Shown here piece after piece: positions 5,100-64,000 of a DNA stretch of 64,000 nt. Both the position numbers and the translations under genes were made by a program. The notes under the pieces were generated by a model. It was not told the origin of the DNA, searched no databases, and was given only the letters and a program-made list of their open reading frames with translations. Origin of the DNA: Psammoneis japonica (taxonomy: Eukaryota); NCBI GenBank assembly GCA_008632985.1, contig QPGO01000154.1:62001-126000 (forward strand), read 5' to 3'. Within the stretch, counting starts at the first letter, position 1, and every line of letters begins with the position of its first letter.

Positions 5100-5107
5100 T
5101 GACGTCA
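5100..5107. promoter_or_regulatory. TGACGTCA bZIP/CRE-type palindrome in a divergent promoter
   Basis: Exact palindrome between the divergent starts at 4878(-) and 5331(+). Function is inferred. Confidence 0.35.
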
Positions 5108-17427: not shown

Positions 17428-17596
17428 TGTGCACGTTTACGAAGTAGAATTTGTAATGCAGTTGCTCGCCGTTGTTGATGCTGGTGGTCGTTGCGTTTGG
17501 CCTGTTGTTTGAAAGAAAAGTGAGTACAAATCCACATACGAAGGCATGCAACGCATATTTCATACAGAATATTCCGTATGTACAACGTGTACGAAT

Positions 17597-36234: not shown

Positions 36235-36389
36235 GTTCTCCTCTTGATGGAAGAATTGAGCCCCCGATGTGTACCTCAGTGAAACGATGTGGATATAGAG
36301 AGCGGACGGGACTATACAGTAGTGGCAGCCGAGGGTGTTGTCCGGCATGTAGCACCGAGACACAAGATCAAGAACAGCGTCACCTACCG

Positions 36390-39300
36390 GGCATGATGCA
36401 TCCATGTGATCGTTGTGTGCGATGCGTGATGCGGCGAGTGGAGAGGGCTCTGTGCGATGCCGGACAGACGTCGGAGGGAGAAATGCGATTTCAACACAGG
36501 CTCAGAGTAGGAGTTGGCAGCAAAACACAGAAACTTGGCATCAGAGAGCTGGCCGCAGAAGAGCTGTGGAAAAGAGGACAGTGCTTTGCAAATGAGGGCT
36601 GTGCTGCAGCCACGTGTGAAAGAACTCAATGTCACAGCACACAGCAGAGACCCAAGACCTCCCTCTGCTTGCTGCAGTGTGATGCAGCGACAAGACAAGC
36701 ACGAGGCAAACACCTTGAAGTCAATGGGCTCTGACAATGCACAGGTCAAAGGGGGGGGGGGTTGTCATTGTGCATGGCTGTGTGCCAGGGCCCCACTCCC
36801 TCTCATGATGTTGATTTGTTGCCCGCCGTTGTGTCGTTGAATGGACAGCCATTCGGCGGATCAAAACCCACGAAAAGTTTGAAAGAGATGCCAGAAATGA
36901 GCGGGGGATGACGATGACGATGCCGGACACACAACCCAAACACATTTCTCATAAGTCCAATTGAAGCGTCAAAAGAATCTCTGGTTGACACAACGCAAGT
37001 GTGGTTCGTCCGTGATTTTTTGCCTGTCTCACACAATCAAATGTGTCCCGACAATTTGGTCTGAACATTTTTTTCTTGGCAGTGCAGCGGGGGCGATGGA
37101 GTGCACTTCTTGCTGCACAGGCAGTGGTTGGCAGGCAGCGCTTCTAGATTTCACGTTGCCTTGCTGCAAAATGCACGCACAACACAACAACAACTGGCAG
37201 TTCGATGGAGTCGGTTTTTTCTTCTTTTTTTTTTGCAGCTCAGGCTGGCTGTCAGTCAAGTTGGAAACATTTGAGAGACATTGAATCTTTTTCACATGGC
37301 CCTGATGCAGAATTTTGCATTGAATTTTTGTCCTGTGGGGAGTTGTGCCGGCTGCTCTTCTTTTTTTGTGCGGCGCGGCAACTGCTGGCTGCTGGCAGCA
37401 GCAGGTGACAAACAAAAATTGAGAATGTTTGAGAGACATTGAATCTTCTTTTCGTGCAGCTCTGGTGCATGAATCTGCGTGCATTTTTTGTCCTGCAGCA
37501 CGGGAAATTGACACGAGCGGCTCAACATTGAACAAATTTCACGGAAATTGAATCTTTTTTGCGCAGCCGCAGTGCATGATCCTACGTGAACTTTTCGTTC
37601 TACAAAAAACATTGAGAACATTTGAGAGACATTGAATCTTTTTCACGCAGCTCTGGCACACACAATCCTGCATGAATTTTTTGTCCTGCGGGGCATTTTA
37701 ACACCAGCGGCTCAAAATTGACAAAATTCATGGAAATTGAATCTTTTTTGCACAGCGGCAGTGCACAATCTATGTGAACTTTTCGTCCGACGAACATTGG
37801 GAACATTTGAGAGACATTGAATCTTTTTCACGTTGCTCTGGTGCACAACCCTGCGTGAATTTTTTGTCCTGCAGGGAGTTGACACAAGCGGCTCAACATT
37901 GAACAAATTTGACGGAAATTGAATCTTTTTTGCGCAGCCGCAGCACACAATCTACGTGAACTTTTCGTTCAATGAACATTGAGAATGTTTGAGAGACATT
38001 GAATCTTTTTCACACAGCTCCAGCACACAATCCCACGTGAATTTTTCGTCCCGCGGGGAATTTACACGAGCGGCTCAACGTTGAACAAATTTGACGGACA
38101 TTGAATCTTTTTTGCATAGCCGCAGTGCACAATCTACGTGAACTTTTCGTTCGACGAACATTGAGAACATTTGAGAGACATTGAATCTTTTTCACGCAGC
38201 TCCAGTGCACAGTCCCACATGAATTTTTTGTCCTGCGGGGAATTGACACGAGCGGCTCAACATTGAACAAATTTGACGGACATTGAATCTTTTTTGCGCA
38301 GCCGCAGCACATGATCTGTGTGAACTTTTCATTCGACGAACATTGAAAATGTTTGAGAGACATTGAATCTTTTTCACGCAGCTCCAGTGCATGATCCCAC
38401 GTGCATTTTTCATCCTGCGGGGAATTGACATGAGCGGCTCAACATTGACAAATTTCATGGATGTTGAATTTTTTTGCGCAGCTGCAGCACATGATCCCAC
38501 GTGAACTTTTCGTTCTGATGACGAAATGCTGCAGCGGAAATTCGGCAAAGATCGGAGACCAATGAGAGACAGTGGTCTGCGCCTCCCCCGATTTCAAAAC
38601 AGAAAAGATGCGCAGACATGCAGATGTCCATGCAAAAAAGCGCGCTGGGCCGCACGCACAAAACTGGAAACCATGGCGTTTGAGTTCGCCGACTCTTCAT
38701 GGGACAATCTGTTGGAACAGGCATTCACCCGTCTCATCACCGGTGGGCACCAACCATTTCTTGGTCTCTGCAATGATGATTTTGCATCTCGCTTGTTTGT
38801 CACACCCACAGCCATCGCCGCAACCTTGTGGCCATCAAGATGGATCCTTCCTTTGGACAACTTCCCGGAAAATGAAATCGCTTTGCCAGTGACCTTGCTT
38901 GGTCAAGACTCAACACGTGAGCCGATCCATGCATGGGATTCAGAGCCGACCATTTCTTCTTGGCCGGCTGCAATGGCGGTGTCCTGCCTTGCTCCTTCTT
39001 GCGCTTGTGTCCCGCCGGACTGTTCATCCTTGTTTCGTTGACACTTCTGGCAATGAATGCGGTGGAACGCAAGAGCTTTCTTTTTGCATCTTGGCGGGGC
39101 ATTGTCTTTGTCAGATCAAAATGTCAAACAAAAACCCAAGAGATTCTTGTGTGTGTTTCAAAATTTCCTGTGTGCTGTGTGCAGTGTGCAGCACGCCAAC
39201 AGCACGGGAACAAGCCATCCGCCATCACGACTCACGACCATCACAATGAACAAGCTGATGACCCCTGCGCACAGTGCGCACCACAACAATGACATGCAAA

Positions 39301-39700
39301 TGGTGTGTTTTCATCGTCAGATCAGAGGCGACAACTTCATTTTGTTGCCAGTTTTGTTGCCGGCAACCAATGTGGACGGAGATTGCTGCAACGTGCAAGT
39401 TTCGCAGAAATTGAATCTTTTTTGTGCAGCCGCAGTGCACAATCCCACGTGAACTTTTCGTTCGACGAACATTGAGAACATCATTTGAGAGATGTTGAAT
39501 CTTTTTCACCCAGCTCTGGTGCACAATCCCACGTGAATTTTTCGTCCTACGGGGAATCAACACGAGCGACTCAACATTGAACAAATTTCACGGAAATTGA
39601 ATCTTTTTTGCACAGCCGCAGTGCACAATCCTACGTGAACTTTTCGTTCGACGAACATTGGGAACATTTGAGAGGCCATTGAATCTTTTTCACGTTGCTC
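36390..39700. other. TAY-depleted (A-to-G hypermutated) block 1
   Basis: TA dinucleotides almost vanish after about 36,390. Repeat units carry ca/tg where sister units carry ta. Confidence 0.85.
37265..38697. repeat. Array of about 182-bp units (about 7) plus a unique end segment; mutated copy of a probable non-autonomous element
   Basis: ttgaatcttttttg recurs at 37548, 37737, 37919, 38101, 38283 and about 38464. End segment 38520-38697 matches 40565-40747. Confidence 0.9.
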
Positions 39701-40747
39701 TAGTACACAATCCTACGTGAATTTTTCGTCCTACGGGGAATTAACACGAGCGGCTCAACATTGAACAAATTTGACGGACATTGAATCTTTTTTGCGTAGC
39801 CGTAGTACATAATCTACGTGAACTTTTCGTTCGACGAACATTGAGAATATTTGAGAGACATTGAATCTTTTTCACGTATCTCTAGTACATAATCCTACGT
39901 GAATTTTTCGTCCTACGGGGAATTAACACGAGCGGCTCAACATTGAACAAATTTGACGGAAATTGAATCTTTTTTGCGTAGCCGTAGTACATAATATACG
40001 TGAACTTTTCGTTCGACGAACATTGAGAATATTTGAGAGACATTGAATCTTTTTCACGTAGCTCCAGTACATAATCCTACGTGAATTTTTCGTCCTACGG
40101 GGAATTAACACGAGCGGCTCAACATTGAACAAATTTGACGGACATTGAATCTTTTTTGCGTAGCCGTAGTACATAATCTACGTGAACTTTTCGTTCGACG
40201 AACATTGAGAATATTTGAGAGACATTGAATCTTTTTCACGTATCTCTAGTACATAATCCTACGTGAATTTTTCGTCCTACGGGGAATTAACACGAGCGGC
40301 TCAACATTGAACAAATTTGACGGACATTGAATCTTTTTTGCGTAGCCGTAGTACATAATCTACGTGAACTTTTCGTTCGACGAACATTGAGAATATTTGA
40401 GAGACATTGAATCTTTTTCACGTATCTCTAGTACATAATCCTACGTGCATTTTTCGTCCTACGGGGAATTAACATGAGCGGCTCAACATTGACAAATTTC
40501 ACGGACATTGAATCTTTTTTGCGTAGCCGTTGTACATAATCCTACGTGAACTTTTCGTTCTGACGACGAAATACTGTACTACAGTAGAAATTCGGCGAAG
40601 ATCGGAGACCAATGAGAGACAGTGGTCTGCGCCTCCCCCGATTTCAAAACAGAAAAGACGCGTAGACATACAGACGTCCGTACAAAAAAGCGCGCCGCGC
40701 TTCACGCACAAAACTGGAAACCATGGCGTTTGAGTTCACCGACTCTT
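39400..40747. repeat. Array of 182-bp units (about 6.5; each an 80+102-bp dimer) plus end segment; largely unmutated copy
   Basis: Unit starts at 39411, 39597, 39781, 39963, 40145, 40327 and 40508, with near-identical right-hand units. Confidence 0.95.
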
Positions 40748-40764
40748 AGCTACCATAGCCTGAT

Positions 40765-40942
40765 TGTATTGAGGTTTTCTACTGTACAGAAAAACCGTGG
40801 CACCACCAGGATTTACCAGTGATTACTGTAAGCACAGTATTGAGGTTTTCTACAAAACACCTTTGGCACTATCCGTAGTCTCTCGCATCTCACTGTATTG
40901 AAGTTCTCTGCGGCCGTACAAAACACCTGTGGCACTACCAAG
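40765..40942. repeat. Three degenerate copies of gtattgaggttttctac..aaaac..tggcactacc
   Basis: Copies start near 40766, 40837 and 40895. Confidence 0.65.
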
Positions 40943-40959
40943 ACTTACCTACCAATACC

Positions 40960-42869
40960 ATGAATCCTTGCTCGCATTTGCCATCATCTATTTTCCTGGT
41001 GTTCTGGGTCGTAACAAAGTTTGCTCGGTGCACGGGAGAAGTCAACCTACCGCTCGGGGACGTGAACGTTTTGATCGTGACAGACACTCACGGATGGGTG
41101 GGAGGTCATGGCTTTCACGAACCAGAACTCAATGCGGATTATGGAGATGTCTTGTCCTTTTATGAACGATTGAAGCACATGTGCCACGAACGGGGGAAGA
41201 GCTTGTACTTTGTTATGAATGGTGACTTTGTCCATGGCACAGGACTGTCACGAAACCCACCGAGAGAGCTTGAACCTTTGCTTGAAAAAATGCCATGGGA
41301 TGCCGTTAACGTTGGAAACCATGAATTACAGGAAGACGAAACAGTGGAATTTATAATGAGACCAGCCGGATTTGTTGATTGGTTCGGTGATGCATATCTC
41401 ACATCTAATGGTGAGTCCGCGCGGTTTCCCGGCTGCTTCTGCTCTGGTTGCATCATTTTGAGTTTCTGACAAAGTTATTATGCCGCAGTTGTGCGAGCTG
41501 CATCGGGACGGCCTCTTGGACAAAGATATCGCTTGTTGCAAGGGCGGTTTCAAGAATCAACAATCCTTATTTTTGGGTTTCTTTTCAATCAAGAGGATGC
41601 TAGCCCCCTGGTCGAAGTCGAGCTCGTCGAAGACGTAGTGAAGTCGAATTGGTTTGTTTCTGCGCTGCGTGACAACTCATTTGACGCAATTGTTGTCATG
41701 GCGCACATGGATGTTCAAGACCCGCTTGTTTTTGTTATCTTGTCTGCGATTCGCAAAGTGTGTGGCAAAGGTATGTCCGAGATTCTGTCATTGGGCCGAG
41801 GTAGCAGAGTTGAAGTCTCATCATTGACCTTTCCTTTTCGACGAACGCCTGGAACGAAGACATGCCAGTTCAGTTCATCACTGGTCATACCCATTATAGA
41901 GCACACGCAATGCTGGATAACGCTAGTTGCTCCTTTGAGGCTGGAAGGTTCTTGGATACTGTCGGGTTTGTCTCTCTAAATTTAACCACAGGCGTCAACT
42001 CAACGGAGCGTTTTAACCACGTCTTTTTGGATGCCAACAAGGATATACTTCGAGATACATTGGGAGTCCCCACATTAGCCACTGAAGCTGGTACGGAGCT
42101 GTCAGAGTTCATTCGCGATACTCAGGAAGCACTTGGACTTCTGAATGTAGCTGGCTGTTCACCGAATCGCTTTTACGAGAACATAGCCATGAACGAGACG
42201 AACTCTCTCTGGGGTTTGTATTTCAATCAAGTCGTTCCAACTCAATTTTTCAAGGGCGACACGTCAAAGGTGTTGGTTCAGAGGGTGTCGTGGTTCTTTC
42301 GTTACGATTTGTGGGACGGAAGTGTGAGAGTTTCTGACATTGATGCGGTTGTCCCAGAGGACGAATCCCTTTATTTCATTGCAAAAGATGTCAAAGGCTC
42401 TATCATCAAGAAGCTGGTGAATACGCTGGCACGCGAAGAGGAATACAGAAACGGGACACTGCCTTCATTTTGGTATTCAGGAGTGGTAGAGGATGACGAC
42501 ACATACGAGTTGTACACGATCGGCAAGGACGTCCCTCGAGTCAAATATGCTTTGAGCGATATGGACGCGTCATCTGATCCACAAGAGCTCTACGAAGGAA
42601 ACACAACAGTGCGCACTCTTTGGGAGGGATTTGTGACCGAGTTCTGGCCATGCCACGGTAACAAGCACGTCCCTACATCATCAGGATCGGGCAACAAAAA
42701 CAGCGACGCCGGCGGCTCTGACGGTGCGTCAGCAATCACAAAGATAACCATCGTGACCATTTTAGCAGTAGCCATTGTATTTGTTGTTCGGAATGTACCG
42801 AGATGGCGCCGTCGTTATGACACTGAATTTATTCCTGAACCGGAGGGACATGTTGCCCTTGTAGTCTAA
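40960..42869 (+). CDS. Secreted/membrane-anchored 5'-nucleotidase-like metallophosphoesterase; introns 41411-41488 and 41771-41859
   Basis: Signal peptide, TDTHGW, NGDFVHGTG, VGNHEL, AHM, TGHTH and a C-terminal TM helix. Both introns keep frame. Confidence 0.88.
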
Positions 42870-44563
42870 CACGCCGGAAACGCAGGAACGTGAGCGTTAC
42901 GGCAATTAAGATTTAACTTTCTCTGTCATTTTAGACTACAGCATATGCCCGAGTCTCGCTTTCGGAGAATCCTCCAAGGAAAGGTTTTCCATAACGTTAC
43001 GTTAACGTAGCAAAATTGTTACGGACTCCGTAACGAAACGCAATGTTTGAGAACAATCAAGTTGGATCGGATTTGCCAATTTCTAATTTGTGATAACAAA
43101 AACTAGAGGCTACTCGACAACCAAAAACCAAAGAAAGAAAACAATAAGTGACTCGTCCTTGTGCTGGAGCCAACACAGATGAACGTGCACCAACGACTTG
43201 TCAGGAACGAGAAGTTCTTGGTTACATAAAACAAGAAGAGAGGTTGGGCTCCATTCTCGTTTTGAACTTTGGACCTCTCAAGTGGCATCGGTTGTTTGAT
43301 CTGTGATTGGTTGAGACGTTGATGGCGGTCTTTGTTTGTGGCGGTCTTTGTGACTCGTAGCTTGAGGCACAACACATGAATAATTTCAAACTCCCTCATG
43401 CCGAAAGGTCCGAGTTGTCACCACCCATGCGATTGCGCACGAATGCAGGCAAGTCGGGCATTTTACATGGTCAAGAGATCAGCCTGCCAAAGCTCAGTGC
43501 TGACAGCCTCAATCAATGGGTGCCCATTGGCAACTTCTGAGTGGAAGCAGTGGCAGACATTGTTGATGTGATGAGTTCTGGCCCTCATCTTGGGCACCCT
43601 GGCAGCTCAGCTGCCGAGTTGTCCTCGATCAATTTGCAGAAAATGGGTGGAGTCACAATTGCTGGGCAAGCTGTTTGTTGATTTCCTCCAACAAGCACGT
43701 GGATGCTTTCACATGCTGAGTGGCAGCTGACAAAGGCAAGTGCTCACTCTCACTGCTGCTGAGAACAAGCTGGGTCTGCAGCTTGGATGGCCAGTGGGTG
43801 GGAGCTTCTCTCCATGCTTGACAGCACAGCCACTGTGAGACTTTGCTGCTTCAGGATCTTCAGCCATGATTGTCTTGTTCCAATTGCCATGGAAACTGGC
43901 ACCAGACTGCTGAAAAACCATTTTCTTTGTCAGGTGGGACATGGGCACACTAGCCCTTGTCACGGGCATTCAACAGGAGCCAGCCAATGTGCTCGCCACA
44001 TGCAATGCCATGAGATTGCTTTGGGCTCTGGCGGTGGTGAGGCTGAGCCACTTCGTTGGTTGTGTGTGTGGTGTGTGTGGTGTCAGGCCAATTGGACTTC
44101 TCCAGGAAGCTCACTTTCCCCATCACCAACTGGCAGACAGCAGAGTCAAATCTGCACTTTGGGTGCTGTCACATCTGGACACTGGCCCCAGCAGATTAAC
44201 CCGCCACACTCCCATCCACCAGCATGCCAGTTGGCATGGCAGGATTGTCCACAGGACAATCTGTCCATTTTGTTTCCAGTCAAACAGGAAATTGGCCAGA
44301 GATGCTTGTCTTTGCACAGCTGACTGTGTTGGAAGAGAAGAGAAGCCCCAAAACAATGGCCAAATTGTTGTCCAAAACAAGGCCAGAGCACAAGTCTAGT
44401 CACCGCATTTCCCACAAATCTGTTTGTGAGCTCCAAGATTCATGGAGGCAGCTTTTCCACTTGTGGACCTCACGTGTGTGGACTTGGTGCTTGGACTTCA
44501 TCAACTGCGTCACTGGCAAAATGGTTTCATCCTCTTGGGCACATCTGCTTTTTCACAAAGCTC

Positions 44564-45737
44564 TGACCCTGCATCTCCTTGATCATGGCTTTTTTAGCTG
44601 GGTGGCAACTGGCTGGATCACAGCTTTGTGCAGGTGCACGGCACAAGGGTTGGCAAATGCTTTCATGGGGTGCACAAGGACAGAGCAATTAAGCTCTGAC
44701 TCAACATCCTGTTCCTCTGAGTGCATGTCTTGGTTCATTGTGTTAAACTTGACACCCCATGAGAGACAAGGCCAGCTTGCCATTGCAACTCTGACTCTGT
44801 CATGTGTCATGTCAGCTGAGCTGTGTGCCCAGACCTGGTTGTCCACACAGGTGGCAGTGGCTCTGGTTCTGGAGCACCTAAATCAGGTGTGGCAATTCAG
44901 GGGTTTCAGACACTCTTTTGCTCATTGCATCTGTTGCAACTCCCTTGTTTGGGATTTGGGGTTGTTTCCTCTGGAATGAGTGCTTGCCAAGGGACATCAG
45001 CTCTTTTGGCCTGGTGAGGAGAGACATTCATTTGTCACATCTTGATCTGCATCTTCTGCTCAATCTTTTCATCAGGTCATGGCTGCACTTTCAAGTCTTG
45101 GAGGTGACATGTCTCTTGCCAGTGGGACTCAACTGCACACTGCTGGGTGCTGAGCATCTTGAACAAGTTGTCAAATCTCAAATGATGCTGAGGTGTGTGA
45201 GACCACACCCTTTGTGAAGTTCAACACAAGAGTGGTGGAATGAGAGTGTTGTGGTGATGACAATCCAAGATGCAGACCAACTCAAGAGCATGAGCCCCAC
45301 TTTGGAACAGGCTTGCTCAACTGCAGCTTGTTGTTGAGAAGAAAGTGCCAAATTTTGGGTTTTGTGGGTGCTCTCATGAAAAGCTAAATTGGAGATGAAT
45401 TTTGCCCAGTTGCAGGGATGCAGTTGTGCACAGCATTTGCATGTTGGATGACACAAGGCTGTGCTGGGAGACCTCTGCCACTGCCTTTGGCCATCAATGC
45501 TCCTTGGCATGAATGAGTTGAGGTTGTGCTGAACATTGCAAATCACAATTTTTTTTGGTGGCACCACTCTGGAAATGAGAGTTGACTTCAAAAAATGAAA
45601 TCACCTGACTCACATCTTTGATCACAGATGGATGTGTGCTGTGAGCAAAATGGCCATTGTTGAATGACAGCAGCACATGTGCTTGCTCCCAGAAAACAAA
45701 AATGAGACTCAAAAGCATGTTTTGGCTGCAACAGTCT
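44564..45737 (+). repeat. Dispersed repeat of about 1.15 kb, copy A
   Basis: Collinear matches with 53021-54130: ctgcatctccttgatcatggc, cttgatctgcatcttctgctcaatcttttcat, gtgacatgtctcttgccagtggg, aatgagactcaaaa. Confidence 0.85.
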
Positions 45738-48700: not shown

Positions 48701-48961
48701 CGACATCGCAGCAGAAGCACACCAAGCTTGCAATTCATTCACTGCTGTTGTTTCACAGTCTGGCCTGTGAATTTTCTTTTCACTGCCGGTGTTGCTGCGT
48801 TGTTGCGCTCCACAAACTCCGCAACAGCATTCTTGCCGATTGGGAGATGAATGAACGCCCATGCGCTGTCATCTGAGGGAGCCTCCTCCTCAAGTGCAAG
48901 GAACCATGCTGTCAGATTGCCTCGTGGCGGTGCATTCTTTCACTCGGACAGCAAACTCAAG

Positions 48962-53020: not shown

Positions 53021-54130
53021 TGATCCTGCATCTCCTTGATCATGGCTTCTTTGAAATGGGTGGCACTTTGCAGCTTTGTGCAGGTGCACAGCACTGGGAT
53101 TGGCCAGCGCTTTTGTGGAATGTGCAGCAATGAGGCCATCATGCTGACTCTGACTCAAGGTCCTGTTCTGAGCACATGTTTTGGCCCGGTGCATTAAATT
53201 CAACCCCTCAAGAGACTGTGTTGGCTTGTCTTGCAATCTCCAATTTCTGTCATGCACTGTGCTGGCTGAACTGTGCGTGGCCATCTGCACAGGTGGCAGC
53301 GGCTCCAGCTCAGGAGCACCAAACTCAGGTGGCAGCCCAGGGTTTCAGACTCTCCCTCACTCCTTGCAGCAATTGCATCTCCCTCTCATTTGGTGTTTTT
53401 TCCTCTGAAGAATGAGTGCTTGCTGAGGGACATCAGCTCTCTTGTTGCTGAGGAGTGAGATTGGCTCACAAGGTCTTGATCTGCATCTTCTGCTCAATCT
53501 TTTCATTGAGTTGTGGTTGCACTTTTGAGTCTCAAAAGTGACATGTCTCTTGCCAGTGGGGCTCAACCAGGCAGGACCTGAGCATCTTGAACAAATTGAC
53601 AAATCCCAGATCATGCTGAGGTGCAAGACCATGCCCGTCATTGAGTTCAGTGCAAGAGCAACAGAGTGCAAATGCCATGGTGATGGTCCACCAAGGTGCA
53701 GACCAACTGAAGAGCATGAACCCCACTTTGGCACAGACTTGCTTGATTGCAGCTTGTTGTCAAGAACACAGATTGGACATGCAAATGGATGAAAGGGCCA
53801 AATTTTAGTTTTTTGGGTGCATTCATGTGAAGTGCTCAATTGGAGGTGTGTCTTGCCCAGTTGCAGGGGGATGCAGTTGTGCACAGCACTTGCGTGTTGG
53901 ATGGCACACGACCATGGGGTGACCACTGCCTTTGGCCATTGATGCTTGGCATGGGTGAGTTGAGTTTGTGCTGACCACAACAGGGGGGAAGCTGATTTGC
54001 ACCTGTCTTTGCAGATGGATGTGCTTGAAGTGAGCAAAATGGCTGTCATTGGCATGACAGCAGCAAGTCCAAGTGCTTGCTCCTAGAAAACAAGAATGAG
54101 ACTCAAAACCACACTTGGTTGCAACAGTCT
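53021..54130 (+). repeat. Dispersed repeat of about 1.1 kb, copy B
   Basis: Diverged direct copy of 44564-45737. Confidence 0.85.
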
Positions 54131-56199
54131 TGACCCCAACAAGGGAGAAACATGGGCTCAGTGGACCAACTGTGTGTGCCAGCAGAAGATTGACTTTTTT
54201 GTGACTCTGTGGAGTTTCTCATTTTGAATGACTGAGTGCAAGAAAGCTTTTAAGCAGAGCATTTCCTTTTGGTTGCAACAGAGCCAACAGTGGCACACAC
54301 ACAGAACATGTCAAAAATGACCTCTGCCAGGTTTCAACATGTGAGCCAATGTGATTTTTTCCATTGGCCCCTTCATGGAGACATGGCCGGAGAAGCCAAT
54401 GTTGCACAGTTGGTGCAACAAGAGACTGTTTGAGTGCAACAATTAAAAAATTTGATGAGGGTCAATCCTCTGAACCAAAGAGCTTGCACACACAGGAGGT
54501 CCACCAGCAGGCAGCTTTGATGAGGGCTGCCTGGACACACTCACAAGTGCCCCGGCCGGGGTGCTCAGAGGCACTGCAAAAAAACACAAGGGAAGTGCGG
54601 GAGAATTGCAAAACCATGAGCTGTCAAAAAAATGCCTCTGCTCACTGATCCATCCTCACCTGCCTGCCTGTGGTGAACAACCAAAAATCAAAAAATGGAC
54701 AAAACGGACTCACTTTCTCCCTCTGCCACCAAATTGAATCTTGCTCATGACCAACCACCTTGCACTGCACTGCATCAACCAGCAACCAGGCATCCACATG
54801 CCGGTGCATGCAGTCCACTGCAGATGCCATCTCCATCTCAGCACTGATGCAAGATGCGAGTGCACTTTCTTCTTTCTTCTTGACTGCAACAAACCTCTCA
54901 AGAGCAAAGTGCACCATGAAGACACCACCCACCCACCTCCGTTCAGCAGTCACTGGCGGTGGTCCTGGAGGCATTTTCTTTTGCCGTGCTCTGGCAACAT
55001 GCCAACCAAGAGCTGCAAGCAGAGAGAGGTTCAAAAGCACAAGCTTTGCTGCAGTTTGCAACTTGCTTGGAGCATGTTGCTGCAGTTGGAGGAGTTTGGA
55101 GAAGTCAACGAACCTTCACCAAAAATGACAAGGAAGATTCTGGCAAGGAAAATGACAGCAACAACAACAACAATGATGATCTTGGCAACAAGTCATGTCA
55201 GCTGAGACTGGTCAAAACCACAAACATGTCTTGTGGGTTGGCGGCAGATGTCCCGCCAAAGACTTCACTCATGGGCATCAAGTGCAAAGCAAAATGAGTC
55301 TGTGTTGGCAGAAGCTCCAACAACAATGTCATCACGTGGACAAGCAGCTGGCCTCAAGACAAGGTGGAGCCAAACAACCACCTGCTGCCTTGGCAGAAGA
55401 TGGCAAAGTCATTCAATTTGCCAAGGCCAATCATGTCTTTTGGACAAGCACAAAATGTGATGCGAGATTGCATCCAAGGTTTGTGACATTGACACCACAA
55501 TCTTTTGCATGGGGTGTGCTCCCAACTTGGACATGTTGGACAAAAAATTGCGCAAGCCACACGCTGAGCAACAAGCTGGTGCAGGAGGCATGTTGGTGCT
55601 CTCTAGACTCACTCTACAAACAAGACTTGGGGAAGTGTCACACAGGTTCACAAACAGTCAATTTCTCCAAAACGTTTGTCACACTGCACCAACAAATCGG
55701 TGACAGGCACATTCTTTCCCACACAACAACAATCTGCGGGCAGCAGCATGGTTGTTGCTGCTGCTCAGGCTTGCCAAATGCAAAAAAAACATTCTTTTTC
55801 TTTCTCACGTGTGTGATGCAACCCAAGAAACAATGCTGCCACCAACAGAATGCACCATCTGTCAAAAACCCTTTTCCCATCTTGCTTTTGCTTTGTGCGC
55901 GGGTTGCTCTTCCACCGCTTCAGCCCCATCACACCCGCTCACCTTGTGAACAAAGCACAGGGCTGCACAACCATGTGATGCAATTGGGTTGTTGCAAGCT
56001 TGCCAGCTCAAGCTTTTTTTGATTTGTGGAGCCATGGAGGCAAGCCAGCAAGCTCAGATCCCCCTTCTCGTTTCATGCTGGACCCCCCCAAAAGCTCAAA
56101 ATCTCCCCAAGCCATCCAGCGCGCACTTTCCAAATGATTGGCACAAATGGTGGCTTGACTCTTGATCTTGTCATGGCAGGAAAACTTGTCCTTTGCATT

Positions 56200-56840
56200 G
56201 ACAAGCATGGGTGATGTCTTGGCAGCTCTGGCCTCGTCAACAATCTTTCTGTTTCAGCCTCGCACTCGAGCAGATCCTTGAGCAAACTGGGCCAGCAGTG
56301 CTGAGCCATTTCGCCATTGCCACGAATCTTCATTTTTGTTCAATCACAACTGGAGTCACCCCTTTGCAACCCAGTGTGGCAACAAAATCATCATTTTTGC
56401 AAACGAGTGTTTGAAGCAACTCACAAGCGCGTTTGAAGACATCCTTGTCAAACTGCTCACTTTTCACAACCTTCAGGACCGTGCCAACAAGAGAAGGGTG
56501 CTTTTGCAGACAACATTTTTGGCATGGGAATTGCAGAGTGAAATGTGGTTGAGCATGTGCACAGTGCATTGTCGTTTCTTTTGTCGACTGAGGGAGTTGT
56601 CAACGCCTGTCAGCGAAAGGCCGCGCCCATGCGCACCAACAACTTCGCTGCAGCAATGCAAGCATGGATCATCAATGGCACCCTCATCCATGAGCAAAGT
56701 GGCAAGATCTTTTGCAGCTTTGGAAATGGCCTCAAAGCCATCTCTCCATGCACAAAGCCTCGCACAAGAGCTTGGATGAACCCGATGCTCTCGAATCTTT
56801 TTGCATCTCTGATGCTTTGCATTTTCGATCACTGGCAGTG
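56200..56840 (-). pseudogene. Degraded helical (ARM-like) protein gene fragment
   Basis: Broken frames FEAISKAAKDLATLLMDEG / VGTVLKVVKSEQFDKDVFKRACELLQTLVCKNDDFVATLGCKGVTPVVIE look amphipathic-helical. Confidence 0.3.
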
Positions 56841-58299
56841 TTCATCTTCAATTCGGTGGTTTGGGGGTGGCGGTGGCTGCTTTGCACTGTGGCAGGTGAC
56901 AGCGATGCTGTGGAGCAACCAGCAACCCTACGATGACGACTTCTGCTTGTCTCATCCATCCGGCAACAACAATCTTCCGCTTTCACTTGGCTTCCATTTA
57001 CCGGCATTTTGATTTTTGTTTTTTGCTTTGCGTTGCTTGCTTCCTTTCAGCTTGTAGAATTATTTCTACGTACATTCTACCTACAGTACAAAGACACGTA
57101 CACGCCTACTGCACACTTTGCAATCTAATAGTCGCGCACGTACAATCAATATCCAGACCGGCGCCTATTATAGGCGCTGGCTGGCTCAAGGGCTGGCTCG
57201 CTCCCGCTCAGTGATGGGTGATGGAACCTGTTCGGTCTGGGTCTCTTTCCATGGCGTTGGTACTCTAGCTCTACTAGCATTGAAGCAAGCGTCTGGTGGT
57301 AACCTCCGTCAAGCACGATTGGGGTCTCCAAAGAACATGATGATATGGTTTCATTTGGCAGTCGCTCTGGAACGATTGGAGAAAGCTAAAGACAGAAGAC
57401 AGAATTGATGGACATGCTACGTCGCTGCGAAGCCGAGCACTTGCTTGGCTAGTCGATTCTTGGGGCTACATTCGTTGGCATACTCGCAAAATCCCCTCCA
57501 CAAGAACAATCTGTACTACGGTGGTTCACGTGATAAGCTGCAAATTGCGCTCGACGCTGCTGAACCTCTCGTCAAGCAGAGCGGGTGGCTGTATGAATTT
57601 GCGTGGCGCCTTCTAATGCAGATGACCCCAACCTTTCCGCGGAAGTGCGGATTAAATCTGACGAGTCGTCAAAAGAACGACCCTGTGAACGTTTGCTTTT
57701 GCTCCCTTTCTTCTCACGAAGGCATTGACTGACTTTTTCAAACGCGTCCTCGTGAGACACCACCGTCCAAACATGTTGCCTCTCATTCTTTTCTCATGAA
57801 TCTTCCTGGAGGAGAGAGACCTTGAATCTCGAAATCAACAAAGAGTACAAGCTTCCTTTCAATCTAGACGACTCACGTCCAATCGTCGTTTTGTTCATGC
57901 CGCGAGTCAAGAGAGTTCGGATGAAATCATGGGCAGCAGTCATCGCCATAATAACGACCTGGACGGAGTTTGTCGCCATCTCGAATTGCCAAATCCTATC
58001 GAATGCAATGTATGAAAAATAATGGGGTGACCACTGCCAATACCAATTCTACTACTCAGAAACAACAATAGTATGGCTCGTATCAAGAGGATGACTTGTT
58101 AACGTCGTCTACAAACGACGATGACGGTACGCTAACATGTGTTGGACAAGTGGTTGCTGGTAGTCGTGCTCCCAAGACTTTCAATCATGATGATTCTTGT
58201 GCAGCCAATAATGATGCCAAACAGAGTTGGTTGAATCAAGGTGGTGGCGGTGATCAACACCGTAATTCCGCGTCACTGTTGCCGCATCAAAACAGTGTC

Positions 58300-59041
58300 G
58301 TGTTGCGCATGGATTATGAAAGCGATGGCAATGACTGCAATAAGAGGGGTGGTGGTGGTGTAGCAACCAAGCAGAATAACGATCCGCCCCTCCACCCGAC
58401 TCGGTCATTGAGCCTTCTTGTCGCACTGTCGGAGGAAGACGATCGTACCTTTGATTACGGATCACTCCTCGAAGAGAGTACACACGGGTGCTTTGATACG
58501 CAACAAGGAGAGGCACAACGCAAACCAAGGAGGGAATGGATCAACAAGCCAGTGTTGGCTTTGATCAAGAAGCATCATCGCCACTCATTAACAAAGATGA
58601 TGTTAAGTTTTAAAAGAATGCCGCCGGTCAAGCCAAGGCGGGTGTCGGAGTGGTGGCGGCCGGTGCCGTGGGAGGGTTGCTCTTGGGGCCTGTCGGTGTA
58701 TTGGTGTGGGTGCCATGCAGATTCCAGAAGAACAGCGAGCCAATGTAAAAGAAAAGGCGACAAACGCCGTCTATTCAGCAACGGACAAACTCTCGACGAG
58801 CTGTGGCACGGCGTGTATACAGTCTGGTATCGTGGATCAACTACCTCCCAAAATGACGCAGTGTTACACTGGAACGGTCGCAGAAGAAGGTACAGTCGTC
58901 ACCACAATGATAGAGCCGGATAATGCGCAAGACGCGGCCAGCAAGGGAGCGTCCGAAGTAGCAGCAGCAGCAGCAGCAGCAAACGATACCAGCATGGAGA
59001 AGAGCGGTGTCGATGCTTTAACAGCACCATGCGAGGGTTGA
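58300..59041 (+). pseudogene. Frameshifted gene fragment with a glycine-zipper-like segment
   Basis: An alternative frame gives GVGVVAAGAVGGLLLGPVGVL, continuing after a shift into GAMQIPEEQRANVKEKATNAV. Confidence 0.3.
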
Positions 59042-59964
59042 TTCCGGAGCAACGACACGCAAATCAACGTCTCCATCTCGGAGAGCTGCGTGCTTGCGAG
59101 AAGCTAAGGATTGCGCCCAACAGTGCGTTTGCTACTTGTTGTTGTAACGCGCATTGAAGAAAGGCTCAAACACATTTTGCACAATCTCACTTGTTGTAGT
59201 GAGAATAGTTCCAGTAAATCAGATTCATTGGCTGAGTGCAATACAGCAGCCTCGTGCATGGCTGATGTCATGGAATGTACTTTCTGCCGTGGTACTTTAT
59301 GTCTAGTCAATCCAGCTAGTTTCTCACGAGCGACACATTTGTATTGATTGCTTAGAAACATGCACGGGTAATTCTTGATGTAAGTGCAAAATAGCTACTG
59401 AGTTTTACTGATTGGATAAACACGTGGTTGCTCACCATTTTTTCGTCATCCGCCAAATGTTAAAACCATTGTGTCACCGTCAAAGCTTTCGCGCACAGAT
59501 TCGAGTGCCCAGTAGCTCAAAATCAAATACAATCAATTCGTTGTCCATGAAAGATATAGGAAAGACAGAAAGTTGCTTAATATGGGTCGAGGGTGATTCT
59601 CGCTATGGCTATGGAGAGAGATCCGAGGTGAGAAAGGGTGTAAGACCCTGCTAAGCGGTGTCAAAGGCGAGCTAAGTAGTACGGCACCCCCCTCCTCGTT
59701 CACAGCTGCCCTGGCTCAGGCCCACAGAACGAAAAAAAAAAAAAACTCTCCACCGTCCACCAAAACCCCGGGGCAAAAGCCCCTGCGCAACAATCTTCCA
59801 GTTCAAGGCTTTACCGGCATGCATTAGGTACGGTACAAAACTGTTGCTCTGACCATGGTGGAAGCTACCGGCATTTACAAGACGGTTCTTCATCCGACGT
59901 GGATGCCTTGGTTTCGCTGAGCTTCTTTGGTGGAGAGCGGATGGGACTTGGAGGCACGCTACGA

Positions 59965-62900
59965 CGACAATGGTGTCCGCTCATCCGACAGCGATTTGAG
60001 GTGGTTGATGGGAGCGAGGAGATGATGAACACTGGAAAGCAAGAGAGTCCATCGAACGAAACATCGAAAGCATGTCATCCTGACAATGCATTTTTCGAGT
60101 TGTTGGATTCAAGTTCAGACTCCTCTTGGTCTTGTCCCGACGACGCGGAAAGCAGGAGGTTTTCCGACGATTCTTCTTTTGATCTTGTTGATGCTCCCCC
60201 GAAAGCCAAAATCCAGTCGATCTGTCAGAGCACAGTCTTGTCGACGAGTGATTGACCTGTGGCAGCAGCGACGACGAAGAGGAAAATGAACAAAACCGCC
60301 TGCCGAAAAGGTCTCCAAACCACATCTTTTCGTCTGATTCTAAGAGCGGAGGGAGCGACACAGAAACAACGGGCACTGGTTTGAAAAGCAGTCCACACAT
60401 CAATTTGTCTGTTGAAGAGCCTCTTTTGGATTTGAGCAAAGTCGTTGTCGGCACGCCAACAAGAGCACCGACTTTCCCGAGAAACAAGGATTCACAAACG
60501 ACGCAATTTTTTCTTGACGACTCTGGCTCGGAAAGCAATGGAATGTCAAATGCACTGAGCTGCCTTGGCAAATCGCATCGACATTGATGATGATGAATCC
60601 GTTCAATGTCTCGCCGGGGCCACCTCCCATTTCTCAATTGACGACGGCTCCACATGTGGTGGAGAAGAGAAGCGGCTGCCCCACCTTCGACTGCCAAGCC
60701 AGCACCGCTCCAAACAACGACCGAACTCCATTCGGCCTGAAGTGCAAAGTTGCTCTCTGCTTCTGCATTTCAGACATCGTGAGAAGAAACCGCTCATTGC
60801 ATCAGAGTGCACGACATCGCAATGTCTGCACACATGACAAAAATGTGTTGCCACATCATGAAATCTGCTTGTCTGCACACAACGGTTTTTGTCATTTGGC
60901 CAATTGTTGATCTCCTGCTGTTCTTCATGTTTGAACACAGATGTTTTTTAATTTTTGTGCTCTGCCTTTTTCACAACAACTGACGATCTTTGACGACAAG
61001 CCAAACATTGCAACTGCATGCAATGAAATTTTCATCATGCAAAGTGTGGCCAATTGTTTGGTCAACAACTGTGCTCCAATTTGCCTGGTTGCCCGCATTG
61101 TCCGCTTCATTCCACATGTCTTGTCTGCTCTCTTGCAAGAATTTCAAATGTGCCGCTGCTGCGTTGGATGTTTCCTTGTCACCATTCCAAAAAAGCCACA
61201 CTGCATTTCTTGCATTTGGGTGAACATCATCGAGAGGAAGAGGTCCCTCGAAATGCTGAATCGTGTCGCTGCTCCCCTCTTGACGTCATGTCCTTGGCTT
61301 CTTTTTCTCTTTCTTCATTTTGCCCGTCCTGTTTTTCTCTTCCTTCCTCTCGTCTTGGTGCCGCCTGTTTTCACCGTCTCCGGCATCTTTCCATCCGAAT
61401 CCTTCTTTTTCATCGATCCCGTGCCGTCGCCTTCATCTCTTGTTGTTGTTGTTTTTTTTCTGTTGGGTGTCACTTTGTTTTGGATCCATGTTTCTGACTT
61501 CTCTCTGTGCTGTCTCCATTTCTGAGTGTTTCTTTGTGATTGTTCGCACGCGTCACTTGAAGGCACCCATGTGTTTTTCACGCACCTTGACGCACATGTA
61601 GAAATCCATGTTGTTTTCCAGTGCATGCACCCTTTCTCCTGATGCTGTTCCACACAATGTTTTCTTCCATCAACTCCACACTCCGTGTTGCCCTTTCCCG
61701 GCATGATCTCATGCAGGATTTCCCTGGGAGAAGTCACATGTGCGTCTGGTGGGTTTTTGTGTTTAAAACTCCAAATCGCACCAGGCGCGTGTGTGACTTC
61801 TCCCACACACCACTCTGGCACATTTCCACAGAAACCAGATTTTTTGGTGTTGGAACAGCAACCATGGCACCGCGTGACCTGTCGGTCACCTCTCTGTTGC
61901 AAGACAACAAACAATTCCCACCTCGAGGAGGCCGCATTTGAGTCTCTCTTTGCCAATGGTTTTGGAGTGATCAACAGCAACGAGCAGAGCCACGTCAAAG
62001 TGACAATCGAGACGGTGAAATCCAAGGTTCAGTTTCACCGCGATTCCACTTGTGACCCCTCTCCGAATTGGATTGCGCTTGCCTGTGTGTGGCAAAAGTT
62101 GAAGGGCAGACCTCATTTTTTTGCAGAGCTGATGGCTGTGAACACATTGTTGCAAAGGAACTTGGGCACAAGAGCTTGCTGCACTTTCTTTCCGCAAAAG
62201 GATGGAGTCACTCCAGTCAAGGCGCCAAACATCCTCATGTGTTGGAGCATCACCGTGCTCCCAAAGCAGAGGACATGAAAGGCATCAGCGACAAGGCAAA
62301 ATCAACAGACATTGCAACCAACATGATGGCAAAGATTTCCATGTTGCACAAGCTTCTCCATGATCCCGGATTGTGCAACCCAAAGGGAGAGCCACTTGTC
62401 AAGCACATTGAGCTGAGAAGTTTTGAAGGGAAGGTTTTGCGTCACGCACAACACCTTCACATTGGTTTTTTGATTCTTCGTGACAAGATTCTGCCGTGCG
62501 CACCTGAAAGGAATGGCGACTGCGATCATTGGCTGCACTCCCTGTTCGGCAAATGTGACGAGACATCGACTTGCATCAACTTTTTGGAGAATTTCCTGGC
62601 TCTTGGTCACTGTGAGACAACCAAAGACGAATGACCCATGTCCTTCCCTGAATTCGTAAAGTCGTTGTTCCGCCAACACAAAAATTCTTGGGAAAAGCCT
62701 GTGCGACTGGCGATGCTCGATGTCGAGCGAGAACAAATGCGCGCAACACATGTCGATGAGACTCTTTTAAGATGTGTGAAAATTGATCGTGTGGTTTCTG
62801 CCACTGACGATTCAGGCAAAAGCAAGGCTGCAAGGGATCGTTTTGAGGCCATGTGGAAAGCCAGGCTTTGTGACTTTGCCACTCAGCACAAGAAGAAAGA

Positions 62901-64000
62901 AATCGGCAATGCAATTCCATCCGTTGCGAAAAATGCTCGGAAACAAAAAAATCCAAATGGCGTGAATCCATCACATTGTTTGATTGATTGTTTGTGCTCC
63001 TCTTCTTGTCTCTAATTCTTCTGTTCTTCTTGCCACCTCTTTAGCCGCCTCCCTTTGCTCCTCAAGCCCCAGTCTCAAAAACCCCAAAGATGGCGAACCT
63101 TCTGATGTTTCTCAGAACAAATTGCTGATTCTCCAAGATGTGCCGACTCTCGAGGAACAATTTGAATGTTCCCGAACAAAGTGGCCGACCCTCGGCACAA
63201 CTCATCAGTCACCTCCTCCTCCTCCAGACAATTTCACAAAAGAAGAGCTTGTGAAAGTGTTTCCTGAACCATCTCCATTTGCGATTCTGGGTGAGGTGAA
63301 GTCACAACATTCTCACCTTGTTGTCTTTGAGGAAACCCCCATTTCCGCTTCCTTCAAGGGGAGCTGTGTCAAGCACCAGTTGTCCCACAGCATCTCCAAT
63401 TTCCACTTGGTGAATCACCTCCACAAGTTCATGCATGGATTTGAAAACGGCATGGCTCCCAATGATCCGATGCAAGAATCGATGGTTGCGGTTGCTTGCC
63501 CGACCCAGTCAACCTCTCATTTTTCCGACGTGGTCACTCATTTGTGACACACGGACAAGATGCATCAGAAGTGCTTTTTTGGATTGTGATTCAGTGTGTC
63601 ATCAATGCTCCGTGCAGTGTTGGAACATGGCAAGCCGAATGAAAAAAGGGATGGACCAGAATGCAAGTTGTGCTGTCAGATCTGTTTTGGTTGTTGTGGC
63701 CAGAATTGCGAAGTTGCAGACGGTGAGTTAGCTGAAGTGGGACCTGCTCACAAGCCTGGTGCTGTCTTTGGCAGGGACAAGTGGGAGAAGCTTCCAAAGG
63801 ATGTGCAGATGATGATGGCCTCAATCTTGGACGCCGCGCAACTCTGCGAGGACGAAATTGATCTTGTTGCTTTGAAAGAAATGCGCTCCTTCCATGACCC
63901 ACACTGCGACAGTCTTTTCGCGGCTGAGCTCCACAAGATGGTTGGAGCCAAGCACACTAGAAGGGAAGGCGAGGAAATTCAAGTGAAGTGTTGTTGCACC
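59965..64000. other. TAY-depleted (A-to-G hypermutated) block 3, CpG largely retained; relic coding sequence
   Basis: TA is nearly absent to the window end while CG stays frequent. Protein-like Tyr-free frames lie at 62068-62965. Confidence 0.85.

Follow-up and report, generated by a model that had tools for sequence, protein, structure and literature searches.

Domain-confined, TpA-removing hypermutation in a diatom genome: a candidate case of DNA adenine editing

Three blocks of the window (a 64,000-nucleotide stretch of contig QPGO01000154.1 from the diatom Psammoneis japonica) have lost nearly all of their TA dinucleotides, and they are probably chromosomal domains in which TpA was edited in place to TpG or CpA, within local limits, by a putative adenine deaminase directed to silent chromatin (Table 1). 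The near-absence of TA, first reported in the first-pass annotation together with normal TA in the genes at 1 to 36 kb and in the intervening islands, was confirmed: the observed/expected ratio (o/e) of TA was 0.03 to 0.09 in the three blocks compared with 0.59 to 0.63 in positions 1 to 36,350 and both islands. Across the 21,112 bp of blocks, 70 TA were observed against 870.2 expected from the TA density of the other 42.8 kb of the window (Poisson P about 1e-272; for block 1, 13 against about 137). CA/TG showed an o/e of 1.47 to 1.88 inside the blocks and 1.11 to 1.23 outside, and AA was not depleted in the blocks (o/e 1.17 to 1.36). As an outside control, diatom-like metagenome DNA totaling 448 kb, from 72 loci and cut into 1,684 windows of 500 bp, gave a median TA o/e of 0.64 and a 1% quantile of 0.25, with 5 of the 1,684 windows below 0.2. 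Block borders were sharp to about 10 to 50 bp and lay roughly 0.5 to 1.2 kb from the closest gene ORFs in the two islands; no motif common to the five borders was evident by eye. Beyond its phosphoesterase gene fragment, island 1 holds more ORFs as far as 42,866; the ORF of island 2 has no Pfam family.

Table 1. Blocks, islands and repeated or gene-like features of the window (positions in the window; strand as +, or. for unstranded blocks).
Feature	Position	Strand	Remarks
Block 1	36,386-39,700	.	TA o/e 0.06, CG o/e 0.84
Mutated 182-bp tandem array	37,412-38,515		within block 1
Mutated array plus 180-bp flank	37,412-38,697	+	paired partner of 39,465-40,747
Second 182-bp array, mutated first 1.6 units	39,396-39,700		within block 1
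Second 182-bp array, clean part	39,701-40,566	+	normal TA, units 97-100% alike
Island 1, normal composition	39,701-43,358	+	calcineurin-like phosphoesterase gene fragment 40,879-41,466
Block 2	43,382-57,054 (13.7 kb)	.	TA o/e 0.03-0.09 throughout
Old duplicate, copy A	44,400-45,900	+	partner 52,860-54,300
Dead glutathionyl-hydroquinone reductase (Xi-class GST) gene copy	48,855-50,072	+	frame open, nearly without Tyr
Old duplicate, copy B	52,860-54,300	+	partner 44,400-45,900
Island 2, normal composition	57,055-59,866	+	ORF 58,072-58,920
Block 3	59,877-64,000	.	runs past window end; TA o/e 0.04, CG o/e 0.72

The direction of change, from TA to TG or CA, is established by the units of the tandem arrays, by double mismatches between the old duplicates and by tyrosine codons of the dead gene copy, and it is the direction that had been proposed from the paired copies. 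The mutated array of block 1, taken with its flank, differed from the clean copy by 143 substitutions (A>G 41, T>C 39, C>T 22, G>A 19, transversions 22), so that A>G and T>C made up 80 of the 143, and it held 8 TA where the clean copy held 70. Across the six mutated units, 78 ancestral TA site-instances now read CA (42), TG (26), CG (1) or TT (2), or were kept (7); the 71 changed instances thus comprised 68 single transitions, one double transition and two transversions. In the same units CG had become TG or CA in 21 of 78 instances, and other bases had changed at 29 of 779. Each of the two old duplicates of block 2 was mutated independently of the other, and a CA/TG double mismatch separated them 50 times, compared with at most 10 times for any other double mismatch. 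In the dead GST copy, the 13 conserved Tyr columns now hold Cys (TGY) in 10 cases and His (CAY) in 2, with 1 kept; among the 11 Tyr codons with a preceding pyrimidine, 9 read TGY, 1 reads CAY and 1 was kept. Conserved Arg of the same copy had become Gln, His or Cys in 8 of 14 positions. No Tyr-poor relatives were found among 240 proteins fetched, the minimum of the GST set being 3.1% Tyr.

Loss of TA depended on the flanking bases. The tetranucleotide RTAY was absent from the blocks (0 against 255.5 expected), RTAR and YTAY together were reduced to 26 against 466 expected, and YTAR was the best-surviving context (44 against 149 expected). The preferred changed base is the A of 5'-T-A-Y-3' (equivalently, the T of 5'-R-T-A-3' on the opposite strand), with the 3' neighbor preferred in the order T>C>>G,A, and of the changes at the mixed sites of the arrays, 27 hit the TAY strand and 8 the TAR strand; the TAY preference suspected earlier is borne out by both sets of counts. 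Each TpA site was changed once, on either strand, and one and the same ancestral TA became TG in some array units and CA in others. Strand use was about equal at the 500-bp scale, where TG and CA counts were balanced save in one window (z of 3.2) and strand-coordinated clusters were not found. An apparent small TA island at 50,204 to 50,574 was rejected, as 7 of its 9 TA sites lie in the refractory YTAR context. The RTAY o/e is an easy marker with which to locate such domains across a genome.

The border at about 39,700 cuts a unit of the second 182-bp array in two, and the units at 39,765 to 40,492 are clean, though they are near-identical neighbors of mutated units. A border within a homogeneous tandem array implies a process that acts in place and whose limits are not set by homology, and this border, together with the position of the others near gene ORFs, points to targeting by silent chromatin. 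Under the reading that we consider probable, the domains (satellite, old duplicates, dead gene copy and high-copy repeat, set between active host genes) would carry a heritable silent-chromatin state that directs an ADAT/TadA-like or other deaminase to DNA, where adenine would be deaminated to hypoxanthine and then read as G. The repeats, duplicates and dead gene copy that the first-pass annotation had placed in the blocks were all found, but the repeat-induced targeting that it had modeled on fungal repeat-induced point mutation (RIP) was not upheld, with near-identical tandem units untouched beside mutated ones and the border in mid-unit. Like RIP, the process mutates non-genic or duplicated DNA densely and by transitions only, within sharp limits and with few indels, and it kills gene copies whose frames can still be read. 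However, RIP changes C to T mostly at CpA and creates TpA, which the process in the window destroys, and RIP mutates both copies of a duplicated sequence, whereas here clean tandem units adjoin mutated ones. The chemistry, with TA destroyed by A>G and T>C transitions, is thus unlike both RIP and 5-methylcytosine (5mC) decay, as had been argued. RIP depends on an enzyme of the RID/DNMT4 type, and a diatom methyltransferase, DNMT4, is described as related to RID (PMC9998398, in the accessible part of that text).

Parts of the blocks are also depleted in CG, an observation absent from the first-pass annotation. In block 2 the CG o/e was 0.11 at 43.4 to 48 kb, 0.65 at 48 to 52 kb and 0.23 at 52 to 57 kb. 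Since the extent of CG loss varies about tenfold between blocks with equal TA loss, the decay of CG to TG or CA in the domains appears to be distinct from the loss of TA and slower, with deamination of 5mC as its most likely cause; the change at CpG is the one known from 5mC deamination, and is strong at 43.4 to 48 kb and 52 to 57 kb, but 5mC deamination is unable to remove TA.

A weaker form of the TA signature was found in another diatom, on a metagenome contig (L044) with a block at about 5,000 to 8,990 in which RTAY was lost first. RTAY fell to 1.5 per kb in this block compared with 13.2 and 16.5 per kb in its flanks (about a 9-fold loss), mixed sites stood at 13 per kb instead of 17, and YTAR was not reduced; CA/TG o/e was 1.70 and CG o/e 0.33. 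The 10 ORFs of the block gave no Pfam match. Between L043 and L044, 5 substitutions were seen in 1.4 kb of the block, of which 2 were TA against CA/TG, a small count. The loss of RTAY in L044 exceeds the prediction of a simple model with two independent half-sites, and this excess would suit a deaminase no better than a modification enzyme that reads palindromes. Such an enzyme is central to the strongest of the alternatives, in which a maintenance-type activity marks A or T at RTAY in silent chromatin and the marked base mispairs or decays to a transition, parallel to 5mC at CpG, making the loss of TA a by-product of an epigenetic mark. The cooperative, about 9-fold loss of RTAY in L044 speaks for it, as do the self-complementarity of both TA and CG, their common end products TG and CA, and the resemblance of the borders to those of chromatin domains near genes. 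On the other hand, the blocks have not lost TA and CG in step, and we know of no modification of A or T that yields hardly anything but transitions at about 60 times the background rate. The diatom Phaeodactylum tricornutum is moreover reported, in the accessible text of a preprint, to have 5mC and to lack 6mA (bioRxiv 10.1101/2024.10.28.620566). We therefore consider a decaying modified base unlikely, and well behind in-place editing by a deaminase.

It could also be supposed that viral, episomal or retro-transcribed nucleic acid was hypermutated before it was inserted, for example by an ADAR-like activity on double-stranded RNA (dsRNA). In favor of this are the sharp limits of the discrete blocks, the high-copy nature of block 3 (from about 60,800 onward it is a very high-copy repeat, with a summed contig depth of 5,500 to 12,800 compared with about 63 for unique DNA), and the hits on both strands, as with dsRNA editing. 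ADARs are not known outside animals and act on RNA, with a 5' preference of U>A>C>G and a 3' preference for G, which is not the T-only 5' and Y 3' preference of the window. ADAR hyper-editing shares with the window its clustered A-to-G changes on both strands and a favored 5' U; here, in contrast, the changes are in chromosomal DNA, T is required 5' and Y is preferred 3'. Neither the undepleted AA nor the order of 3' neighbors fits the ADAR context, and the border within a resident array argues for DNA edited in place. That border, in mid-unit with the next units clean, also argues against insertion of edited nucleic acid, as do the satellite and host-type gene copy among the blocks and the mixed content of block 2 over 13.7 kb. 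In Bigelowiella natans, the same signature arose in place during culture, according to the accessible text of the preprint (bioRxiv 10.64898/2026.01.13.699255). Taken together, editing before integration is very unlikely.

An artefact, in which the real DNA keeps its TA, could come from the miscalling of modified bases in native long reads, a refuting scenario raised beforehand, or from a polishing error, and a motif-specific pattern is indeed what methylation-linked basecalling errors would give. Contigs of sequencing run X1 (31-mer depth about 61 to 72) matched the blocks with 0 to 7 differences per 0.9 to 2.2 kb, a depth and accuracy that would lie beyond noisy native long reads, and two of them span the borders at 57,055 and 59,866, one contig per border; this depth and these border-spanning contigs make a consensus or assembly artefact unlikely. 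X1 is the sole strong read source, its library type is unrecorded, and it may be the very sample from which the window was assembled, in which case it would not count as independent support; run X2 covers parts of the window only and run X3 nothing. An identical ancestral site in an identical context is nevertheless read as TG in some array units and CA in others, and the unrelated metagenome assembly of another diatom carries the same signature. The artefact is therefore highly improbable, and the miscalling scenario, unlikely already from the X1 contigs, can be given little weight. No more credible is patch synthesis by a Y-family polymerase of the Pol eta type (A to G at WA) recruited to the domains, a candidate of the first-pass annotation: Pol eta errors do favor A after T or A, but its WA mutagenesis hits AA as well as TA with many transversions, whereas single transitions accounted for 68 of 71 changed TA site-instances, AA was not depleted (o/e 1.17 to 1.36), and near-saturation of TAY over a low background (29 of 779 other bases) is unlike polymerase error. 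Of the earlier interpretation as a whole, the directional, domain-confined signature and the deaminase candidate survive, while RIP-like targeting, Pol eta and the implied lack of precedent do not.

A precedent was found in a preprint of 2026 that deals with a rhizarian alga, the only prior report of TpA-removing transition hypermutation in the full-text literature searched; the same search returned no description from diatoms. In mutation-accumulation lines of the chlorarachniophyte B. natans, two integrated viral regions gained 231 mutations, of which 230 were A>G or T>C, and the authors place all of those changes at TpA and propose an ADAT2-like deaminase (Mettrop et al., bioRxiv 10.64898/2026.01.13.699255). 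As far as the accessible text of the preprint goes, the case is very close: the signature of the window matches this directly measured TpA-only hypermutation in its near-exclusive A>G and T>C changes at TpA giving TpG or CpA, in its discrete regions within an otherwise normal nuclear genome, and in its many affected sequences that are without annotation, with an adenine deaminase proposed in both. TpA depletion coupled to CpA plus TpG enrichment in discrete regions, by which such regions are recognized in Bigelowiella, is likewise found in the window. The two differ in lineage (a stramenopile diatom and a rhizarian chlorarachniophyte) and in depth of depletion, which is far greater in the window (TA o/e 0.03 to 0.09, compared with a cluster cut-off of Rho <=0.43 and a Rho of 0.45 for the NCLDV region in the accessible text). 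They may differ also in their targets, which in B. natans are integrated viral regions and in the window include a satellite and the dead copy of a host-type gene, with no viral or transposon domain found. The mutation rate measured in real time is that of B. natans. The 3' pyrimidine or RTAY preference, the sharp borders near genes and the accompanying CpG decay are features of the window of which the accessible text makes no mention. What appears new here, relative to that text, is the T-A-Y/RTAY rule, near-gene borders with a sharpness of tens of bases, one border within an array, and independence from CpG decay.

An adenine deaminase, put forward in the first-pass annotation, remains a reasonable candidate for the agent. 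The T directly 5' of the edited A and a product read as G agree, as a resemblance, with an ADAT/TadA-like enzyme, as ADAT2/3 and TadA likewise take a target A preceded by U or T (U33-A34 in tRNA) and give a product read as G. Their natural substrates, however, are tRNA loops, whereas those of the putative enzyme would be DNA domains, and the T-A-Y preference, with T at least as favored as C at +1, is unlike the ADAT substrate pattern. To our knowledge, domain-wide DNA editing by ADAT2/3 or TadA has been shown in no alga. The ADAT2 enzymes of amphioxus and of trypanosomes are reported to act on DNA (cited in the accessible text of bioRxiv 10.64898/2026.01.13.699255), and the same preprint puts forward an adenine deaminase for the B. 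natans signature.

The saturated form in one diatom and the weaker form in a second suggest a wide distribution of the process across the SAR supergroup. We tentatively raise the possibility, to which we give less weight than to editing in the window itself, of an old SAR-wide genome defense common to diatoms and chlorarachniophytes, in which a DNA adenine deaminase acting on silent chromatin would erase TpA, RTAY first, continuously during vegetative growth. The process may be old enough to have shaped the decay of repeats and pseudogenes in a major group of marine primary producers. Such a defense would parallel CpG decay at A:T pairs, killing whatever lies in a domain, and its enzyme would be the first natural domain-wide DNA adenine editor. 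Genetically tractable diatoms could be used for finding the enzyme, and a natural DNA adenine deaminase, if it exists, would be of interest for base editing.

Protein searches returned little from the blocks. None of the 18 ORFs of block 1 matched a Pfam family, just two sub-threshold chance matches came from the 133 ORFs in blocks 2 and 3, and block 2 held no Pfam family except the GST-like copy. Viral or transposon domains were absent from the Pfam results for these 133 and 18 ORFs, in which heavily degraded or orphan viral genes would escape recognition, and Rfam gave 0 matches in the whole window. For a normal gene, the closest protein matches had no more than 61% identity, and all those with a named source came from diatoms. 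No homolog was found for the ORF at 61,318-62,028(-), and the ORF at 55,180-56,019(+) had two weak multi-stretch matches alone (E = 3e-7 and 3e-4). A protein-atlas look-up gave no usable match for the ORFs at 59,984-60,769(-) and 44,200-44,976(+), whose recognition scores were about 1,070 to 1,125, while most known families reach 2,300. With homologs, Pfam and recognition scores all wanting, the long ORFs of the blocks were rejected as genes. Such long open frames are a by-product of absent TAA and TAG stops and should not be annotated as genes.

The window is diatom nuclear DNA. Open reading frames (ORFs) in its first 36 kb encode EMC1, a patatin-like lipase, an M16 peptidase and a GT2 enzyme; the top matches of the patatin ORF were at most 61% identical, and those that were named were all diatoms. 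Observed/expected (o/e) ratios of TA in 1-kb windows were 0.37 to 0.84 in 1-36 kb, whereas they fell to 0.00 to 0.14 in three blocks, with intermediate values where a window lay across a border. TA-poor stretches were delimited with a 300-bp criterion (see the table), and the list of TA positions gave block borders sharp to ∼10 to 50 bp, bearing out the restriction to domains claimed in the first-pass annotation. With strands combined, TA o/e was 0.03 to 0.09 in the blocks and 0.59 to 0.63 in the rest, and CA/TG o/e 1.47 to 1.88 and 1.11 to 1.23, respectively. The near-absence of TA was confirmed: the 21,112 bp of the blocks hold 70 TA against 870.2 expected from control density (Poisson P ∼1 × 10−272). 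As an outside control, 72 metagenome loci (448 kb) encoding relatives of the patatin gene had a median TA o/e of 0.64 in 500-bp windows (n = 1,684; 1% quantile 0.25), with only 5 windows below 0.2. Normal genes are present in both islands between the blocks. A gap at 50.2 to 50.6 kb was rejected as a TA island, 7 of its 9 TA sites being in YTAR context. Across 36,000-64,000, 199 stop-to-stop frames of at least 70 amino acids overlap positions above 36,000. Most are in the blocks, as a result of the lack of TAA and TAG, and genes would be over-predicted there by a gene finder. The normal part of the window also carries a short, diverged tandem duplication (17,588-17,903; period ∼69 bp, 76% identity).

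Coordinates of features in the window, of contigs from sequencing run X1 and of the block in a second diatom
Feature	Coordinates	Location	Remarks
Block 1	36,386-39,700		
Block 2	43,382-57,054		
Block 3	59,877-64,000		runs off window
Island 1	39,701-43,358		normal composition
Island 2	57,055-59,866		normal composition
TA-poor stretch	36,351-39,701		300-bp criterion
TA-poor stretch	43,359-57,055		300-bp criterion; small gap 50,378-50,547
TA-poor stretch	59,867-64,000		300-bp criterion
Calcineurin-like phosphoesterase gene fragment	40,879-41,466	island 1	
ORF	58,072-58,920	island 2	
Old duplicate pair	44,400-45,900 and 52,860-54,300	both in block 2	
Dead glutathionyl-hydroquinone reductase (Xi GST) homolog	48,855-50,072	block 2	ORF
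X1 contig	44,086-45,069		0 differences from window
X1 contig	46,342-47,495		2 differences
X1 contig	47,689-48,775		3 differences
X1 contig	51,874-53,502		1 difference
X1 contig	53,477-54,381		2 differences
X1 contig	54,352-55,551		5 differences
X1 contig	55,553-57,730		7 differences; spans border at 57,055
X1 contig	59,732-60,827		1 difference; spans border at 59,866
Block in second diatom	L044:∼5,000-8,990 (also L043:5500-6848)		sharp edges; o/e CG 0.33, CA/TG 1.70, TA 0.31

The blocks recur in reads of X1, a sequencing run of unrecorded library type that may be the source sample of the window. X1 contains 0.85 of the words sampled from 52,001-62,000, and its contigs, at a 31-mer depth of 61 to 72, match the window with few differences, two of them across borders of island 2. 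This depth and accuracy argue that the contigs do not derive from noisy native long reads. The eight differences listed in unique block parts include four sites with CA in the window and CG in X1, one with CG against TG, and one T>C at a TTAA site.

The proposed direction of change, from TA to TG or CA, was borne out by three independent sources, namely a tandem array, the old duplicates and a dead gene copy. The 182-bp array is present twice in the window, and relative to 39,465-40,747 the copy at 37,412-38,697 carries 143 substitutions (A>G 41, T>C 39, C>T 22, G>A 19 and 22 transversions), its TA count being 8 instead of 70. Six mutated units were scored against the consensus of four clean units: the 78 ancestral TA site-instances had become CA in 42 and TG in 26, with 7 unchanged, 2 TT and 1 CG, while CG had changed to TG or CA in 21 of 78 instances and other bases had changed in 29 of 779. 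Calculated from these unit counts, the hazard relative to other bases was ∼9-fold at CG sites and ∼60-fold at TA sites. Units differ in whether a given ancestral TA now reads TG or CA; the ancestor was therefore TA, and the hits postdate formation of the array. Both strands of a single TA site were hit in only 1 of 78 cases, which fits a process requiring an intact TpA. In both arrays (37,418-38,515; 39,410-40,566), the satellite unit itself comprises two related sub-repeats of ∼80 and ∼102 bp, and the clean array lies directly upstream of the phosphoesterase gene.

Between the old duplicates, adjacent double mismatches paired CA with TG 50 times and were of any other type at most 10 times; both copies were therefore mutated independently. 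Read contigs also join the two diverged direct repeats of block 2 (44,990-45,953; 53,060-53,961), some skipping ∼8.5 kb and some running back ∼6 to 8 kb. Related copies elsewhere are probably differently arranged, possibly with an old element in solo or tandem form. The dead GST copy, aligned with 60 homologs, is identical in 165 of 207 columns that reach ≥70% conservation. Its 13 conserved Tyr columns now hold 10 Cys (TGY), 2 His (CAY) and 1 retained Tyr, leaving Tyr at 1 of 406 residues compared to 4.5% in the homologs, and 8 of 14 conserved Arg columns have become Gln, His or Cys by changes from CGN to CAN or TGN. All 406 codons are free of stops and frameshifts; only point changes killed the copy. 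Contigs of a further sequencing run, X2, match it (48,682-50,158) with ∼9 to 12% differences (23/189, 43/497 and 48/554 letters) and probably represent an intact paralog at another genomic locus, which would supply ancestral DNA for a base-by-base spectrum.

Sequence context showed a graded loss. RTAY tetramers (ATAT, ATAC/GTAT and GTAC) were absent from the blocks (0 against 255.5 expected), RTAR and YTAY together numbered 26 against 466, and YTAR 44 against 149. The most enriched tetramers (TGCA 3.06-fold, CACA/TGTG 2.67-fold, GCAC/GTGC 2.36-fold and CATG 2.06-fold) are the expected products of TA-containing tetramers. In the dead GST copy, 11 Tyr codons follow a pyrimidine, so placed that the coding strand alone offers T-A-Y; 9 are now TGY, 1 is CAY and 1 is kept. 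At mixed sites in the array, the T-A-Y strand took 27 hits and the T-A-R strand 8. These strand counts indicate that the A of 5′-T-A-Y-3′ (equivalently, the T of 5′-R-T-A-3′) is preferred, upholding the suggested TAY specificity as a preference and not an absolute rule. TG and CA counts were balanced at the scale of 500-bp windows, so both strands are used, interleaved.

The repeat-induced targeting put forward in the first-pass annotation, by analogy with RIP, did not hold. The right border of block 1 falls within the second array: unit 39,396-39,580 is mutated throughout, unit 39,581-39,764 only in its first ∼120 bp, and the adjoining units 39,765-40,492 are clean and mutually 97 to 100% alike. 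A border within a homogeneous array is neither an element end nor set by homology, and the process therefore acts in place on a physical domain, which may be defined by chromatin state. The four island borders lie ∼0.5 to 1.2 kb from the phosphoesterase fragment or the ORF of island 2, and the left border of block 1 (36,350-36,385) lies within the upstream end of a stop-to-stop frame (34,756-36,501, minus strand). This frame gave a weak match to a YacP-like NYN nuclease domain (E = 6 × 10−5, under the Pfam cut-off). From ∼60,800, block 3 is a very high-copy repeat (summed contig depth 5,500 to 12,800, compared to ∼63 in unique DNA) and 50.7 to 51.3 kb is moderately repeated (depth ∼890), whereas a large part of block 2 is close to single copy at a likeness of ≥80%; present copy number is thus not what defines the target. 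Copies of the family at 60,800-64,000 number in the order of a hundred; many contigs have loose ends at 60,800, and no recognizable protein domain was found in the family.

CG o/e varied between parts of block 2 (0.11, 0.65 and 0.23), block 1 (0.84) and block 3 (0.72), with TA o/e at 0.03 to 0.09 throughout. We read the CpG decay as ordinary loss of 5mC from silenced DNA and as distinct from the TpA process. The old duplicates carry 163 transversions in 1,366 aligned columns, yet match the young array in their lack of TA; continuous removal of TA and a single late burst on already diverged copies both fit this.

A full-text literature search found no description of such a TpA process in diatoms and no paper combining TpA, CpA, TpG and diatom. 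The supposed lack of any precedent nevertheless fails, as TpA hypermutation is described in Bigelowiella natans (Mettrop et al., bioRxiv 10.64898/2026.01.13.699255). According to the available text of that preprint, 231 of 302 nuclear point mutations in mutation-accumulation lines fell within two integrated viral regions, 230 of these 231 were A>G or T>C, all of which the authors place on TpA, the rate was ∼6 × 10−7 per site per generation (∼1,000 times background) in some lines only, and an ADAT2-like deaminase is proposed. The words diatom, stramenopile and trinucleotide are absent from the available text, and its Results and Discussion do not take up the 3′ neighbor or CpG (bioRxiv 10.64898/2026.01.13.699255). 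By this match, the window places a process of the same kind in a new lineage, far more saturated and with added anatomy. The process is distinct from RIP, its chemistry being opposite and its target not being defined by duplication. In the available text on diatom DNMT4, this relative of fungal RID has no known function (PMC9998398); nothing ties the TA changes in the window to it. Of the first-pass interpretation there remains a real, directional, domain-restricted and TAY-preferring process, with a deaminase as a plausible agent; its repeat-induced and unprecedented character does not. Any mechanism past the mutation signature is what we infer from it.

A combined filter (RTAY o/e <0.15 and TG+CA o/e >1.35 in 1-kb windows) was passed by a single region among the 72 control loci, present as L043 and L044 (99.6% identical over 6.4 kb), which supplied all 7 passing windows of 789 in the control, compared to 39 of 127 in the window under study. 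The patatin ortholog of these loci is 67% identical to that of the window, identifying them as another diatom. The L044 block has 1.5 RTAY per kb (flanks, 13.2 and 16.5), 13.0 mixed sites per kb (left flank, 17.0) and 9.8 YTAR per kb (compared to 8.6). Judged on these counts, the block seems to represent an earlier stage of the process in the window, and it shows palindromic RTAY being lost first, beyond the prediction of two independent half-sites. Upstream of the block are a TLDc-domain gene and the patatin ortholog.
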